DNA from: a virus
Lineage: Duplodnaviria > Heunggongvirae > Uroviricota > Caudoviricetes
Length of the DNA stretch: 23,060 nucleotides
Virus record (IMG/VR): IMGVR_UViG_2690316115_000020
Coordinates: 1 to 23,060 of that record
Direction: 5' to 3' (one strand)
Shown here in pieces: positions 1 to 5,535 of the stretch. The notes under the pieces are model-generated. The model did not search any database, had not been told where the DNA came from, and worked only from the letters and a program-made list of their open reading frames with translations. A program made the position numbers and the translations under genes. Position 1 is the first letter of the stretch, and each line of letters begins with the position of its first letter.

Positions 1-1158
1 ATGCTCACCGTTAAGCAGATTGAAGCAGCAAAGCCGAAAGAAAAACCATACCGCCTTCTCGATGGTAATGGCCTGTACCTTTATGTCCCTGTGTCAGGGA
101 AAAAGGTATGGCAGCTTCGCTACAAGATTGACGGTAAGGAGAAAATACTGACCGTCGGAAAATATCCGCTTATGACTTTGCAAGAGGCAAGGGATAAAGC
201 ATGGGCTGCGAGGAAAGACATCTCGGTCGGCATCGATCCGGTAAAGGCGAAAAAGGCTTCGTCTAACAACAATTCCTTTAGTGCGATTTACAAGGAATGG
301 TACGAGCACAAGAAGCAAGTCTGGTCAGTAGGCTATGCAACTGAACTTGCCAAAATGTTTGACGACGACATTTTACCTATCATTGGCGGCCTTGAAATTC
401 AGGATATTGAGCCGATGCAACTGCTGGAAGTAATCCGCAGGTTTGAAGATCGCGGTGCAATGGAGCGAGCAAACAAAGCACGCAGAAGATGCGGCGAGGT
501 TTTCCGTTACGCTATTGTCACCGGAAGGGCTAAATATAACCCGGCACCTGACCTTGCTGACGCCATGAAGGGATACCGCAAGAAGAACTTCCCGTTTCTT
601 CCTGCAGACCAGATCCCGGCATTCAACAAAGCACTGGCAACATTTTCAGGAAGTATCGTATCGCTCATTGCCACCAAGGTTTTACGCTACACAGCCCTAA
701 GAACGAAAGAGCTTCGTTCCATGCAATGGAAGAACGTCGATTTTGAAAACAGGATTATCACCATCGACGCCAGTGTGATGAAGGGACGCAAAATTCATGT
801 GGTTCCTATGTCAGACCAGGTGGTTGAACTTCTCACTACGCTAAGCTCAATCACTAAACCAGTATCAGAGTTTGTTTTTGCCGGGCGCAACGATAAGAAG
901 AAGCCAATCTGCGAGAACGCGGTATTGCTTGTGATCAAACAAATCGGCTATGAGGGTCTGGAAAGCGGTCACGGATTCAGGCATGAATTCAGCACGATTA
1001 TGAACGAGCACGAATGGCCTGCTGATGCTATTGAAGTGCAACTGGCACATGCCAACGGCGGATCTGTGCGCGGAATTTACAACCATGCTCAGTATCTCGA
1101 TAAGCGCAGGGAGATGATGCAGTGGTGGGCGGACTGGATTGATGAAAAGCCGGAGTGA
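1..1158 (+). CDS. int: Phage integrase, tyrosine recombinase of the P4/IntS type
   Basis: 385-aa ORF beginning at window position 1 (MLTVKQIEAAKPKEKPYRLLDGNGLYLYV...), typical N-terminal arm-binding region of P4-family integrases. Catalytic-domain signature residues are present in order (..LRTKELRS.., ..HGFRHEF.., ..RGIYNHAQY). From memory it closely resembles E. coli CPS-53 IntS-type integrases. Confidence 0.9.
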   Translation: MLTVKQIEAAKPKEKPYRLLDGNGLYLYVPVSGKKVWQLRYKIDGKEKILTVGKYPLMTLQEARDKAWAARKDISVGIDPVKAKKASSNNNSFSAIYKEWYEHKKQVWSVGYATELAKMFDDDILPIIGGLEIQDIEPMQLLEVIRRFEDRGAMERANKARRRCGEVFRYAIVTGRAKYNPAPDLADAMKGYRKKNFPFLPADQIPAFNKALATFSGSIVSLIATKVLRYTALRTKELRSMQWKNVDFENRIITIDASVMKGRKIHVVPMSDQVVELLTTLSSITKPVSEFVFAGRNDKKKPICENAVLLVIKQIGYEGLESGHGFRHEFSTIMNEHEWPADAIEVQLAHANGGSVRGIYNHAQYLDKRREMMQWWADWIDEKPE

Positions 1159-1375
1159 TCCACCTTAACCACTATCGAAGAGCACAAAGCCTTGCAATCC
1201 AGTACAAAACTTTGTTTGTCTCATCAACCATAGCAAGTCATCGATCGATTGAGGCCTGGATGATAGACTTCATGCCTTTGATTATTAGCTGATAGAAGAA
1301 ATGTTAAAGCTATTTGCAATAGTACACCTCGATTGGTGTTATCAACACGCTAAAATGTTCTGAGATTAAGTCAAG

Positions 1376-2803
1376 ATGGAGTTAATTATGTTCAGAAATC
1401 AATATGCTATATCAGACGCTTCACTAAGTGGTAACATCAGTCCTGACATGGAATGGCACAGGATGAGCATATACCTAGGAGAGGGAGCAGAGGTTTTCGC
1501 TAATGACAATTGCATTATCATAGGTAAAGTCGTCAATAGCTGCGACCCTAGCATGTCCCCTAATGATATAGCAGACGCTGTATCATCATGCGACAGCATT
1601 GAAAGTGTTTTTGAACTGACTGATGGGATGGCAGGAAGATACATAATCGCTTTCATCATAAACTCAGAGGTATATATGCTGACTGATGCTTGCGGATTCA
1701 AAAGAGCTCTATTTATGAGGTATAATGGTGCAAAAATAATAACATCATCTGAAAATTACGCCGCTCACATATTTGGGTTTAACATTGTCATTAATGAAGA
1801 TATAAAAGATATGATGCGGGATGAATCCTACAGAAGAAAAGAAAGCCCATGGTTTGGTTTGACTTCTCCAGATGAAAGATTCAGTTATTTAATACCAAAT
1901 CACTACCTGTATATAGGTGATTTTTCGTTACATCGCATGCCCCCGCCAAAAATTGGTGGTGATGTAATTACCAGCGCATCATCAATGATAAAGAATACAA
2001 TTTTAGCACTTTCTGAAAGGTATAAGTTGATACAGCCTATAACGGCTGGCATTGACAGTAGGATTCTTCTTGCAGCATCTGAATCAGTTAAAGATAAAAT
2101 CGATTATTATGTATTTGGAGACGAAAACTCAAACCACGAAGACGTGTCCGTTCCTAAAGAGCTAGCAAAGATAGTTGGCGTAAATTTTAATGCAATCACC
2201 CCTCCGTCAGCACCAGATGAGTTCAAAAAGGAAATCGAAATGACAGTTCTTGGTGGTAGGGACTTGCCAAAAATAGATAATATATACTATCACTATAAAA
2301 ATTCTAACTTTGAAAAAGTAAACATCAATGGTAATGGCGCAGAGATATTCAGGTCGTATTATGGCGTGTCGATATTAGAGTTTAGCGCCAAGTCACTCTC
2401 TATACTTTCTGGAACTAAAAAATGGCCCATCATGGAAAGAAAGATTTATGATTGGCTAACCTTAACTGAAGCCAAAAGATTTTCTCAAGAGAACAATATA
2501 TCAATTACCGACCTTTTCTATTGGGAGCAAAGAATGGCAATATGGGGGTCTATGTTCCCTTTAGAGCAAGATATCGCAATGGATGAGGTGTCGCCATTCA
2601 GTAATAGAAAGCTAATTTTCACAATGCTGAGCGAATCTTCAAGCAAACGTAGATCACCAGACTTTAAATCGGCAACTTTGTTAATTAATTTTATGGATGA
2701 CAGATTAAATAAAGTGCCTGTAAATCCAAAATCATCAAACCATATTATAAACTTTATAAAGGCCCATACAATAACTCAGTTAATTGTTAAGAAAATAATC
2801 TAA
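1376..2803 (+). CDS. AT-rich cargo (moron) gene; soluble AsnB-family-like protein (class-II amidotransferase-like N-domain plus degenerate PP-loop synthetase domain), function unknown
   Basis: 475-aa ORF, visibly lower GC than flanking phage genes, with many AGA/AGG/ATA codons. The likely true start is the ATG at 1388 (GGAG 6 nt upstream, giving MFRNQ...). Motifs by eye, in AsnB order and spacing: GMAGRYIIAFIINSEVYMLTDACGFKRALFMRY..GAKIITSSE (res 84-126, cf. AsnB [37 protein letters not shown]); LIQPITAGIDSRILLAAS (res 218-234, PP-loop-like, cf. LLSGGLDSS); KELAKIVGVNFNAI (cf. QEVANHLGTVHHEI); NGNGAEIFRSYYG (res 318-330, cf. SGEGSDEVFGGY). No hydrophobic transmembrane segments are evident. 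Confidence that it is a real gene is high; the family assignment is moderate and not search-verified. Confidence 0.7.
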   Translation: MELIMFRNQYAISDASLSGNISPDMEWHRMSIYLGEGAEVFANDNCIIIGKVVNSCDPSMSPNDIADAVSSCDSIESVFELTDGMAGRYIIAFIINSEVYMLTDACGFKRALFMRYNGAKIITSSENYAAHIFGFNIVINEDIKDMMRDESYRRKESPWFGLTSPDERFSYLIPNHYLYIGDFSLHRMPPPKIGGDVITSASSMIKNTILALSERYKLIQPITAGIDSRILLAASESVKDKIDYYVFGDENSNHEDVSVPKELAKIVGVNFNAITPPSAPDEFKKEIEMTVLGGRDLPKIDNIYYHYKNSNFEKVNINGNGAEIFRSYYGVSILEFSAKSLSILSGTKKWPIMERKIYDWLTLTEAKRFSQENNISITDLFYWEQRMAIWGSMFPLEQDIAMDEVSPFSNRKLIFTMLSESSSKRRSPDFKSATLLINFMDDRLNKVPVNPKSSNHIINFIKAHTITQLIVKKII

Positions 2804-2814
2804 ATTTTAAATTT

Positions 2815-2847
2815 ATCAATATCGGGGAATGCAAACCCGATATTGAT
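2815..2847. terminator. Bidirectional intrinsic-terminator-like hairpin between the convergent cargo gene and tailspike gene
   Basis: Perfect 12-bp inverted repeat ATCAATATCGGG (2815-2826) / CCCGATATTGAT (2836-2847) with a 9-nt loop GAATGCAAA. It lies 12 nt after the cargo stop and 25 nt after the tailspike stop, with T/A-rich flanks on both sides. Confidence 0.6.
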
Positions 2848-2871: not shown

Positions 2872-5403
2872 TTAAATTATTGATAGCGTTCTGATTTCAT
2901 TTCCGGCCGGTGATGTCATAACTATCTGTGTTACGTTAGCGCCGGACACCGTATACGTCAGAATTATGTTACCAGCGGTTCCTATATTAAAGTTTTGTTT
3001 AGCACCTGATGAACCTATAGCTTTGGCATTCGTTAAAGTATACGTATTACCTGAGGTAAATCCTGTAGAAATTACAAATTGTTGCCCAACTTTAAAAGGA
3101 ACTGTCATTGTTACGGATGTTGACTCGACAGTGATAAACGGCAGGCTATGCTGTTTAACTCCCGTCACATCCCAGAACTCACAATTACGCACCAATGCTC
3201 GACCAATTAAACCGCGAGTTACAGGGAATGTTGTCTGGTCCTGTGATAAGAATGCTCCAACAATTTGCACGTTATCGAGCGTAATATCGTGTACTGTGGC
3301 CCCATCTATAGGACTTAACGTTGGTGATGCACTCCATAATTTACCACCCTTCATTTTGATACTCACAGGACCATTTGGGTCTCCACCATAATATGCACGG
3401 ATACGCTCAAATTTACAATCTGTGAGTTCATAGCTGCCGCGTTGATTGGTTTCGAACATTGTGTAAGCCTCGCCAGGCACGCCATGTCTAACATTGCTGG
3501 CAACAACACGGGGGTTATGTCGGAACGATGCCGACGTAACAGAGAAAACCGGCGCGCAGACATCATTGATGAGAATGTCCGTGGTATAACGCCCTGTAAC
3601 AGCGTTCTCAGAGTTACTCATATCCGAATATAGCGCTTTAAAGCGGGAGAAGTCTATGTTAAGCCCAACCCCTGCGCTTTTCGGGAGGGAGCCAAAATCA
3701 AGCCCGTCAATAACAATTTTCTTCGGAAAGTAAAGAACATTGTCGCGGCTAACTGTGATCAAAGTTCCTGGGTAAGTCACTGCGACGCCGGGGTACATTT
3801 TAATATCTTTCAGGGTGATATTATTAAATAGCGTAGGGCTTATAGGCGATCCGCTACTAGGCCCCTGCCCAGCAGTGACGGAGGCATTGATAATGCCGTT
3901 ACCCGGAACGTCGTTGCGCAAACCAGTTAGCTTTATATTCTCCATGTATAAATCACCATCGAAGAATCCCCCAGCGTCAGGGCGAGTCGCAATAATATTA
4001 CCAGGCTTATATGGTGAAGCGTTAAATGTTGAATTGGTTACGTACAAATCTCCGATACCAGAAGCGAGGACACCATAAACCCCAATATTACAGTCATTTA
4101 TCTTTAAGTAGTTTTGGAAGGGCCTGTGGAAATCAATTCGACTAAGATCACATCTTTCAAACCTTATATTGGCGCAATTATTGCTGCCTGTCGCCCCCCA
4201 ACCTTGACCATTTGCCGTTGCGTTTTTGATAGTAACATTCATCGATTCGCCTAGCCCGATGGCGTATGCGTAGCTATCAACACCATCTATTAAGGCGTTT
4301 GCTATGGCTGGCGTGTATAAACCATCCACTATAACATCATAGCTGTCGTGAATTTCTAACCGGGTATCATTAAAGTTTTGCGTTATCGGTCTGTTAATAA
4401 ATGACGTATTAATCAGACGAACTCTTGTTGCCTGATTAATAAAAATAATGCGATACCTTGTAGTAAGGCTCTCATCTATAGTCAACCCCTTAATGGTCTG
4501 CACATCTTTGCGAATTTTAAGTGCTTTAATAGATGTTGCGTTAGTTCCCAGGGCGTACTTAAGCGGGTTTTCAATGTATCCACGGTTATATACCCTGTTG
4601 AAATCTACGCGAGTTTGATTAACGCCATCGAAAATAAACATCGGTTGAGATGTTGATAACTGAATGAAGCAGCCGTCAAGGTCGGTGTTAGAAGCCAAAC
4701 CGTCAAGATAGTTGCTGCCTATTCCGCGAGAGTTACGAGTGGACGCATTAACACCATTAACCGGGGCCGAACCTGCCTCATAGGTTACAGGAGCGTCAGG
4801 CTGGCTAATAACAATCTGACCTGTCCACGTAGCGGATGGCTTGAGGACAGAACCAGTTAAATCCACATTTAAACTTTTAATATCAAGATAAGTATCACCA
4901 TCTAGTAGAAAAGTTCCGTCAGATTGCCTAACGTCTAAATTATTTGAATAAGCATAGTTCAGTGCCTTAGCTATGGCGGGAGCGTCATTTGTTACTCCAT
5001 CACCAATAGCGCCAAACTCCTTCAACGTTACCCAGTATTTTACTTTCTCCAAGCTCTTTTGATACTGATCCGGGTCGTACTTCAGCACATTAGGAAAATA
5101 GAACTGCTGTGATCCATATGCATCATAAACAGCCATAGAGTGGCCTTGCACAGTTACGAACTTGGCAATCTGTCCGTTATATACCGGATATCCGGCGGCG
5201 TTAATGATGATTGGTTGCGAAACAGGAACGTGAGAACCGTCTTCGTTCTCTACATAAACCGGAATCTGGTTTTCAGGATTTACCGGGTCAGTGTCAATTT
5301 TACCGATATAAATTTTGCCATTGGCAACCGCTTTAAAAGAACGCGCCATAGTGAAGAGTTGCGAAGGCATACTCACTACAACATTGGCTGTAATGTCTGT
5401 CAT
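2872..5403 (-). CDS. Tailspike protein: P22-type head-binding N-terminal domain fused to a long, divergent beta-helix-like receptor-binding/depolymerase domain
   Basis: 843-aa ORF. The N-terminal ~115 aa ([59 protein letters not shown]...[10 protein letters not shown]) matches the P22 gp9 head-binding domain as I recall it. The remainder is unrelated to P22 gp9 and carries a pectate-lyase-like motif [20 protein letters not shown] near its start. GGAG Shine-Dalgarno 8 nt upstream of the ATG. Confidence 0.9.
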
Positions 5404-5461
5404 TTAATTTGCTCCAGATACAAGGAATCGCCGCAGCATGGCTACGGTGAATTTTGGGCAT

Positions 5462-5485
5462 AAAAAAACCCAGCCGAAGCTGGGT
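5462..5485 (-). terminator. Rho-independent terminator between ejection-protein gene (gp16) and tailspike gene
   Basis: On the minus strand: ACCCAGC-TTCG-GCTGGGT hairpin (7-bp GC-rich stem, 4-nt loop; plus coordinates 5468-5485) followed immediately by a run of 6-7 T (plus-strand A-run 5462-5467). Confidence 0.65.
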
Positions 5486-5535
5486 CGTTGCGTTGGTTAT
5501 CTGTAAGTAGTTATGTGCTTAGTTAATTATTTATT

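Follow-up and report, generated by a model that had tools for sequence, protein, structure and literature searches.

We analysed a 23,060-nucleotide stretch of a Caudoviricetes virus, a P22-like prophage of Escherichia coli (IMG/VR record IMGVR_UViG_2690316115_000020, positions 1 to 23,060), here called the window, and focused on one gene that lies between the integrase and tailspike genes and encodes a relative of asparagine synthetase B (AsnB). We favour, with moderate confidence, the interpretation that this AsnB-like gene is a lysogenic-conversion moron that has taken the place of the O-antigen glucosylation cassette gtrABC, and that its product is a cytoplasmic, ATP-dependent, amide-forming enzyme that modifies the receptor polysaccharide. 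Four observations carry this interpretation: (i) the protein has a predicted AsnB-type fold with a conserved PP-loop and has lost the N-terminal Cys; (ii) the gene stands in the place of gtrABC; (iii) it is co-inherited with a tailspike domain linked to E. coli serogroup O38; and (iv) its wider family is enriched beside polysaccharide and tailspike genes.

A first-pass annotation, made by a model from the letters of the window alone, had described an AT-rich open reading frame (ORF) between int and the tailspike gene, in a slot that normally holds serotype-conversion genes. Both descriptions are correct. The GC content is 0.369 for the AsnB-like gene, 0.482 for int and 0.497 for the remaining window; integrase and Head_binding domains lie on either side; and the gtr leader and a 5' stub of gtrA are still present upstream. 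The features of the locus are:

1..1158, plus strand: IntS/Sf6-type tyrosine integrase gene, the left border of the moron slot (Pfam Phage_integrase, E 2e-39; Phage_int_M; Arm-DNA-bind_3).
1159..1300, plus strand: gtr-operon leader, a presumed promoter/regulatory region common to gtrA/yfdG-bearing prophages, which holds the invariant CATCGATCGATTGAG.
1301..1363, plus strand: gtrA' stub, the left recombination junction, placed by alignment with the intact gtrA of loci L003 and L021.
1388..2803, plus strand: AsnB-superfamily enzyme gene; N-domain (about residues 1-190) like N-terminal nucleophile (Ntn) amidotransferases but without Cys1, C-domain (about residues 191-471) like PP-loop ATP-pyrophosphatases, with T219-A-G-I-D-S-R225.
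2815..2847, no strand assigned: perfect 12-bp inverted repeat, ATCAATATCGGG / 9-nt loop / CCCGATATTGAT, which separates the convergent stop codons and is seen in the sequence itself.
2872..5055, minus strand: receptor-binding part of the tailspike, residues 117-842, a predicted β-helix, pectate-lyase-like (weak Pect-lyase_RHGA_epim match).
5056..5403, minus strand: P22-type head-binding (particle-anchor) domain of the tailspike, residues 1-112 (Pfam Head_binding, E 1.6e-65), backbone-specific.

The arrangement common elsewhere is tRNA-Arg, intS, gtrA, gtrB, gtrC and then a tailspike gene on the opposite strand. In the window, the AsnB-like gene occupies the interval between int and the convergent 843-amino acid (aa) tailspike gene (2872..5403, minus strand). 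The integrase gene is 95-97% identical in DNA to int of Sf6, HK620 and CUS-3, and in public contigs it adjoins yfdC and mlaA, which mark the argW site. Bases 1159 to ~1350 match the region upstream of and into yfdG/gtrA in ~685 E. coli genomes. The gtrA' stub opens at ATG 1301 and retains ~17 homologous codons (MLKLFA...), with an extra T at 1320 that shifts the frame to a TGA at 1361-1363; downstream of the stub, the sequence diverges into the AsnB-like gene. An identical left junction is found in E. coli strain DAM, in O91 strains and in Enterobacter hormaechei. Because this one junction is common to every carrier examined, it points to a single ancestral replacement of gtrABC. In Enterobacter, the stub keeps its frame over 27 codons and terminates 2 nt ahead of the ATG of the gene.

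On the right side, the inverted repeat at 2815-2847 is likely a bidirectional terminator and part of the cassette. All carriers (DAM, the O91 strains and Enterobacter) have the hairpin, with sequence changes that preserve its stem, whereas gtrC-tailspike junctions lack it. It escaped a simple terminator scan, since the T-run beside it is weak. From the tailspike stop codon onwards, the sequence is again similar to gtr-bearing loci. From the left and right junctions, the predicted cassette therefore consists of the gtr leader, the gtrA' stub, the enzyme gene and the hairpin, exchanged between conserved flanks.

From its position, we infer that the leader acts as the promoter of the gene; a consensus scan of the leader found no promoter and no convincing σ70 site. 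The CATCGATCGATTGAG block (window 1236-1250) is invariant in E. coli gtr loci and in all carriers of the gene, and largely so in Enterobacter. It contains a GATC at 1243-1246, and a second GATC lies at 1157-1160. The gtr operons of Salmonella are phase-variable through Dam and OxyR acting at such GATC sites. Because the GATC-bearing gtr leader is retained, the AsnB-like cargo may, by analogy, have inherited phase-variable expression.

The ORF on the plus strand runs without interruption from 1376 to 2803, as the first-pass annotation had stated for a 475-aa product. The true start is probably the ATG at 1388, giving 471 aa, rather than the alternative upstream ATG at 1376, because GGAG at 1378-1381 precedes it with a 6-nt spacer, annotated homologues are 471 aa long, and the N-terminus of the family is MFRNQY. 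No transmembrane segment (maximum 19-residue hydropathy 1.36, grand average of hydropathy -0.20) and no signal-like N-terminus were found in the protein, in agreement with its earlier description as apparently cytoplasmic. The gene is intact in four lineages with a dN/dS of 0.07-0.17, and it stays intact in prophage remnants ridden with insertion sequences (IS) where the tailspike has been lost or truncated.

Placement of the protein in the AsnB superfamily comes from structure and conserved positions rather than from profile scores. Single-sequence profile and sequence searches (Pfam, NCBIfam, PHROGs, PADLOC and PDB by phmmer) gave nothing significant for the window protein, the sole hint being a match at E = 0.11 to the PP-loop region of NAD+ synthase; for Asn_synthase (PF00733), no match appeared at E up to 10. 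PF00733 was likewise matched by 0/74 family members at E up to 0.1, with no Pfam or NCBIfam Asn-synthase threshold reached, and a family-profile search against PDB sequences had its best hits, at E ~1, among PurF-type amidotransferases. Family members do weakly match the GATase_7, QueC and PP-loop models of Pfam, GATase_7 (PF13537) in 10 of the 74 (best E 1.3e-4). In the structure model, the predicted two-domain fold superposes on AsnB, β-lactam synthetase (β-LS) and CarA, and over both domains together the match is with AsnB-type enzymes that form amides, not with modifiers of RNA or DNA. The comparison table lists the following figures, which carry no label:

Carbapenam synthetase: 23.7
β-lactam synthetase: 23.5
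E. coli AsnB: 22.0
Human ASNS: 21.5
Hydroxyamidotransferase TsnB9: 21.1

The earlier annotation had named four AsnB-type motifs by eye. Three of them were paired by hhalign, run against AsnB with the single sequence and then with 14 orthologues (the homologue search for AsnB gave close orthologues only), in collinear alignments at sub-threshold probabilities of 4-7%: PITAGIDSR with LLSGGLDSS, KELAKIVGVNFNAI with AQEVANHLGTVHHEI, and the N-domain core G83-R84...D100-A-C-G with GMFAF...GRDHLG. The fourth, NGNGAEIFRSYYG versus SGEGSDEVFGGY (NGNGAEIF versus SGEGSDEVF), is still a match made by eye, in keeping with the strand-helix order in the model. The PP-loop-like TAGIDS falls at residues 219-224 in the 471-aa numbering. 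Across 74 diverse homologues, T219, G221 and R225 are invariant, and A220, D223 and S224 are kept in at least 93%.

At the N-terminus (MFRNQY), position 2 is F or Y in 66/74 family sequences and never Cys, and a Cys occurs within the first 12 residues in only four of the 74. The family therefore has no glutaminase nucleophile. Residues Q5, Y6, G46, G83, R84, D100, S120 and N171 of the N-domain are invariant or nearly so, and this strong conservation suggests that the domain may still bind something. Conservation of the glutamine- or aspartate-binding residues of AsnB was not evident in the hhalign comparison. Because the PP-loop is conserved and the Cys nucleophile is missing, we assign the protein, on the basis of the model, as a divergent, glutaminase-less member of the AsnB superfamily that lies outside the Pfam Asn_synthase family. 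The label "AsnB-family-like" thus holds in the sense of a soluble, two-domain AsnB-superfamily relative whose predicted fold superposes on known members; it does not extend to Pfam membership by score or to the catalytic Cys.

We then consider the neighbouring tailspike. Its receptor-binding part shares 82% aa identity with the gene-adjacent tailspike of an Enterobacter prophage (L009), 83% with that of an IMG/VR contig (L023) and 88% with that of E. coli DAM, and the AsnB-like gene itself is 85% identical across backbones. The N-terminal anchor of the tailspike is unrelated to those of L009 and L023. Similar receptor-binding domains on unrelated N-termini therefore indicate that the gene and the receptor-binding domain have moved jointly among three phage backbones, found in E. 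coli and in Enterobacter.

With the gtrABC-linked tailspike of the O38 strain BL12, this receptor-binding domain shares 89% identity. Even at blastn 'distant' sensitivity, the AsnB-like gene was found in only 5 of 5,426 complete E. coli genomes. DNA of the tailspike domain is near full length (at least 94% coverage) in 12 complete E. coli genomes, all 12 of which are O38 by wzy, and these account for 12 of the 13 O38 genomes. It occurs in three chromosomal settings: an intact prophage at argW, a remnant at yegL-mdtA and a remnant at dacD-sbcB. The slot beside it holds gtrABC, the usual occupant in related prophages, in 10 genomes and the AsnB-like gene in two (DAM and ANT) as well as in the window. 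Because the same tailspike domain pairs with either gtrABC or the AsnB-like gene, sequence comparison marks the gene as a direct alternative to the O-antigen glucosylation cassette with the same receptor specificity. Exact-sequence look-ups placed the window arrangement on dozens of draft contigs, mostly at argW and with variable P22-like backbones downstream; the full module is present in roughly 36 draft genomes.

Two further observations concern these genomes. NCTC9038 is the only complete O38 genome without the tailspike domain, so the association of serogroup and prophage is unusually tight; this strain also appears to have neither the accompanying gtr module nor the AsnB-like gene. In DAM and ANT (L002, NZ_CM129523.1 7288-12465), two IS1B copies in the same orientation flank the gene together with a tailspike that is truncated at its N-terminus (658 aa), a unit that resembles a composite transposon.

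Outside these phages, the gene belongs to a family of ~490-aa proteins that have no precomputed Pfam domain and no name. A 74-member profile retrieved 1,756 clusters (50% identity) at E ≤ 1e-30 and 6,023 at E ≤ 1e-3 from 1.84 billion representatives. Eight non-phage contexts were read from precomputed Pfam labels: a polysaccharide cluster of Wzx/Wzy or export type is clear in six, sugar-modification genes lie alongside in one, and the last is uninformative. A genome scan with one genome per species gave 55 loci in many phyla, 49 of which were annotated by phmmer against 63 labelled reference proteins. Hallmark assembly genes lie within 10 kb in 26 of these 49 loci, and at least two weaker markers in six more, so that at least 32 of the 49 have a polysaccharide-cluster context. 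The family is enriched in, but not confined to, polysaccharide clusters.

Genes for enzymes that generate carboxylates are frequent neighbours. A UDP-sugar 6-dehydrogenase gene lies within 10 kb in 10 of the 49 loci and in three of the eight first-sample contexts; in E. coli, ugd is chromosomal and unlinked to the AsnB-like gene. A pyruvyltransferase gene directly adjoins the family gene in Marinobacter, Halomonas and Thioalkalivibrio, which hints that the substrate carboxylate in those bacteria may be a pyruvyl ketal and not a uronic acid. The gene order is FrhB-like, family member, polysaccharide pyruvyltransferase in Marinobacter (L038, L014) and Halomonas (L039), and nitroreductase, pyruvyltransferase, family member in Thioalkalivibrio (L006). 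In Brevibacillus reuszeri (L057, 8239-9819), a 526-aa DMFA2_C protein (N,N-dimethylformamidase β-subunit-like, E 2e-104) is encoded directly 5' of the family member with overlapping stop and start, and itself lies 3' of a UDP-sugar 6-dehydrogenase gene. The same layout recurs in L045, L048, L049, L072 and L073, in polysaccharide operons of Brevibacillus and Paenibacillus; in these genera, an amidase-like partner thus adjoins the putative amide synthetase.

Family members also occur beside tailspikes in unrelated phages. In three IMG/VR prophages of Gram-positive type (L024, L025 and L027; Bacillales), a member with 27-32% identity lies directly 3' of a β-helix tailspike gene (phrog_7458, E 1e-139 to 1e-253). 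These prophages carry Dit/Tal, BppU or Baseplate_J tail genes, and one has a PlyG-type endolysin. In L024 (9438-10682), a Wzy_C-family protein (E 3e-25) is encoded right after the tailspike and the family member, an arrangement that suggests a serotype-conversion module made up of several phage genes. The family is covered by no PHROG, and tblastn of the window protein gave no match in 50,697 phage genomes. The partners of a McjC-type lasso-peptide cyclase, a precursor-peptide gene and a B-protein protease gene, are not adjacent among the neighbours read in 57 loci, the only small upstream ORF being the gtrA stub.

AsnB-superfamily enzymes adenylate a carboxylate in an ATP-dependent step, after which an amine attacks. 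Because of this chemistry and the biology of the slot, we propose amidation of the receptor polysaccharide as follows. In the lysogen, transcription from the retained gtr leader would yield a soluble cytoplasmic enzyme with an asparagine-synthetase-B fold. Lacking the N-terminal Cys, it would not use glutamine through the Ntn glutaminase site, as in β-lactam and carbapenam synthetases. The PP-loop domain would bind ATP and adenylate a carboxylate, which an amine from a donor other than glutamine (ammonia, an amino acid or another amine) would attack to form an amide. The substrate would be a carboxyl-bearing constituent of an O38-type host O-antigen that is still cytoplasmic, either as a nucleotide sugar or as an undecaprenyl-PP-linked repeat unit before flipping by Wzx. 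Once altered, the polymer would escape binding and cleavage by tailspikes of the neighbouring type, leaving the lysogen protected from superinfection and changed in serotype.

Known systems offer partial models for this scheme. In Lederbergviruses, O-antigen modification genes lie behind the receptor-binding protein gene and block superinfection (PMC10408124). AsnB-like WbpS makes sugar uronamides; enzymes of this type (Pseudomonas aeruginosa O6, Helicobacter pullorum) belong to the AsnB superfamily, are encoded in surface-glycan clusters beside genes for UDP-sugar 6-dehydrogenases, and have been proposed to turn UDP-HexNAcA into its amide (PMC6025236). By analogy, they appear to be the closest functional counterpart of the activity that we propose. 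The window family differs from them as a separate, unannotated clade without the glutaminase nucleophile, and the window gene is a phage-borne add-on, not part of a core pathway. WbpS proteins are canonical glutamine-dependent homologues of AsnB. A literature search on asparagine synthetase, prophage, tailspike and O-antigen, and on uronic-acid amidation, found no prior description of such a gene.

The window protein resembles β-LS and CarA in having lost Cys1 and retained the synthetase domain. It differs in sequence (11-14% identity), in strong conservation of the N-domain across its family, and in setting, with the gene in a phage moron slot, its relatives in polysaccharide clusters, and no clavulanate or carbapenem pathway genes. 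The catalytic residues of β-LS are a Tyr348-Glu382 dyad and Lys443; intramolecular lactam formation by the window protein is not indicated. AsnB and ASNS (GATase_7 plus Asn_synthase) differ from it in passing the Pfam and NCBIfam Asn-synthase thresholds and in having Cys1, and AsnB also in its PP-loop (SGGxDS(S/T) versus TAGxDSR in the window protein) and its length (554 aa versus 471 aa). With gtrABC (P22, SfX, CPS-53) and oac (Sf6), the gene shares locus, leader and partner tailspike domain, and gtrABC is literally replaced. Those systems are membrane proteins, with Gtr on the periplasmic face and Oac an integral-membrane acyltransferase, whereas the window enzyme would be single, soluble and ATP-dependent, would have to act before flipping, and would form an amide bond in place of glucosyl or acetyl addition. 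The first-pass annotation knew of no described phage function for this arrangement. AsnB-fold proteins as such already exist in phages, as viral Foldseek matches show (E 1e-12 to 1e-10, TM ~0.5). Viral proteins annotated as 'asparagine synthase' (Achromobacter phage Motura A0A514CSI5 and giant-virus homologues) have the AsnB-type fold in common with the window protein but are 10-12% identical to it and 406-440 aa or 846 aa long.

Several observations weigh against modification of the receptor O-antigen by an amide-forming enzyme. Three of the carriers belong to O91 and not to O38. No sign of a carboxylate is seen in the O38 cluster, which encodes four glycosyltransferase-like proteins and a GalE-like epimerase, though ugd is adjacent, and an O38 repeat-unit structure was not found in the literature, including review text. 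The scheme also requires that host glycosyltransferases, Wzx and Wzy all accept the altered unit. On the side of the enzyme, sequence-profile similarity to AsnB is sub-threshold, and the PP-loop is a TAG variant instead of SGG, with a putative competence for ATP binding. The remaining 17 of the 49 family loci have no recognisable polysaccharide cluster, and some have plainly unrelated neighbours. Finally, one gene copy (L023, 590-2005; 85% identical) is interrupted in frame by a lone stop at codon 246 (YYVFG*ENS), although its sequence is conserved elsewhere; this reflects either a recent pseudogene or a sequencing error.

The three O91 genomes (L001, NZ_AP027790.1 12238-13653; L017, 16041-26097) have the intact gene with a 554-bp 3' stub of the tailspike gene. 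Their copy lies in an IS- and group-II-intron-ridden remnant at dacD-sbcB, ~25 kb from the O91 cluster. Because the three carriers share one wzy allele and one remnant, they count as one event, and the O91 occurrence looks like a single instance of hitch-hiking. Amide-linked glycine is present in the O91 antigen (PMC7685785), as a glucuronic acid (GlcA)-glycine amide, and a ligase gene was not found in the O91 cluster. We considered whether the AsnB-like gene is the general O91 glycine ligase and rejected this idea, as 24 of 27 O91 genomes lack the gene at blastn 'distant' sensitivity.

Among other explanations, we regard as unlikely, yet best placed, that the enzyme acts on another surface glycan, such as enterobacterial common antigen (ECA) with ManNAcA, colanic acid with GlcA and pyruvate, or a capsule, and that the link to the O38 tailspike is genetic hitch-hiking. 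The module occurs in both E. coli and Enterobacter, which have ECA in common; every carrier has a colanic-acid cluster with the wcaK pyruvyltransferase gene and ugd; O91 strains without the matching tailspike still keep the AsnB-like gene; and the O38 cluster has no dedicated acid-sugar gene. Yet it is an O-antigen glucosylation cassette that was precisely replaced, by a gene co-inherited with an O-antigen-type tailspike domain on three backbones, and morons in the int-tailspike slot are known to act on the receptor of the tailspike itself (PMC10408124).

Less likely again is a cytoplasmic small-molecule or metabolic role unrelated to phage receptors, in which the protein makes an amide or lactam metabolite or acts as an ammonia-dependent, asparagine-synthetase-like enzyme. 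Its nearest structural neighbours, carbapenam synthetase, β-lactam synthetase and TsnB9, are secondary-metabolite enzymes, and the 17 of 49 family loci outside polysaccharide clusters would accommodate such a role. The phage slot holds no biosynthetic partners, however, the gene recurs beside tailspikes in unrelated phages, most contexts of the family are polysaccharide clusters, and the residues with which AsnB binds glutamine or aspartate show no evident conservation.

We place lower still, as improbable, a single-gene anti-phage defence or superinfection exclusion that does not work through the receptor polysaccharide, for example by ATP depletion or PP-loop nucleic-acid modification. The first-pass annotation had offered defence as one of two readings, beside polysaccharide conversion. 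Prophage moron slots often hold defence genes; the PP-loop nucleic-acid modifiers QueC, TilS and ThiI are weak single-domain matches; and PADLOC gave a weak match to PD-T4-6 (E 0.032, 11 bits, 35 residues). Against this, PADLOC-DB gave no significant match, chromosomal homologues lie in polysaccharide operons and not in defence islands, and the whole two-domain match is to AsnB-type amide formers rather than RNA or DNA modifiers. Of the two readings, conversion is thus the one favoured, by the Wzx/Wzy contexts, the co-inheritance with the O38 tailspike domain and the distant tailspike neighbours. Very improbable, finally, is a tailspike accessory, either an assembly chaperone or a post-translational modifier: the gene is always beside a tailspike gene in phages and, in the Gram-positive-type prophages, immediately downstream on the same strand, a frequent position of fibre chaperones, but the window copy faces the late operon in convergent orientation and follows a lysogenic gtr leader, the gene remains intact in loci with a deleted or truncated tailspike, the majority of homologues belong to bacterial polysaccharide clusters without a tailspike, and related tailspikes work with gtrABC in its place.

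The rest of the window holds a P22-like virion module of ordinary kind, with 95-96% identity to known Lederbergviruses, and a tRNA scan of the window found none. The interval 5404-5535, between the tailspike gene and gp16, has no arc/mnt (immI) genes. Among the loci compared (L087, L090, L091 and L094), several otherwise identical int-gene-tailspike modules sit on backbones with arc/mnt and with differing gp16 variants (614-797 aa, some with an SLT domain). This comparison shows mosaicism directly beside the module.

When prophages modify the O-antigen, they influence serotype, the host range of phages, vaccine epitopes and how reliable serotyping from DNA is. To our knowledge, phage O-antigen enzymes so far are membrane-bound and of glucosyl-, acetyl- or polymerase-type. 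We rate the AsnB-like gene as a candidate moron for serotype conversion whose enzyme class and site of action would both be new, drawn from a large uncharacterised family; by analogy, it probably alters a host surface sugar in a way so far undescribed for phages. A cytoplasmic, ATP-dependent, amide-forming converter would, if true, be new both in chemistry and in where it acts, and would add amide formation or charge neutralisation to the listed phage O-antigen chemistries of glucosylation, O-acetylation, linkage switching and phosphoethanolamine. More tentatively, and at somewhat less than even confidence, we suggest an unrecognised class of serotype conversion in temperate phages of both Gram-negative and Gram-positive hosts, in which a single, soluble, glutaminase-less amide ligase of the AsnB superfamily would edit a carboxylate of the receptor polysaccharide on the cytoplasmic side, would cancel recognition by the tailspike receptor-binding domain with which it travels, and would give a function to several thousand bacterial proteins that are so far uncharacterised. 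Strains of E. coli that wzx/wzy typing assigns to O38 could show at least two prophage-determined variants, one with gtrABC and one with the AsnB-like gene. The gene-tailspike module is a pair of enzyme and probe, in which the neighbouring tailspike can report the modification. If our interpretation is true, it would also give the first functional handle on a large unnamed family, 1,756 clusters at E ≤ 1e-30, that populates polysaccharide clusters in many phyla.

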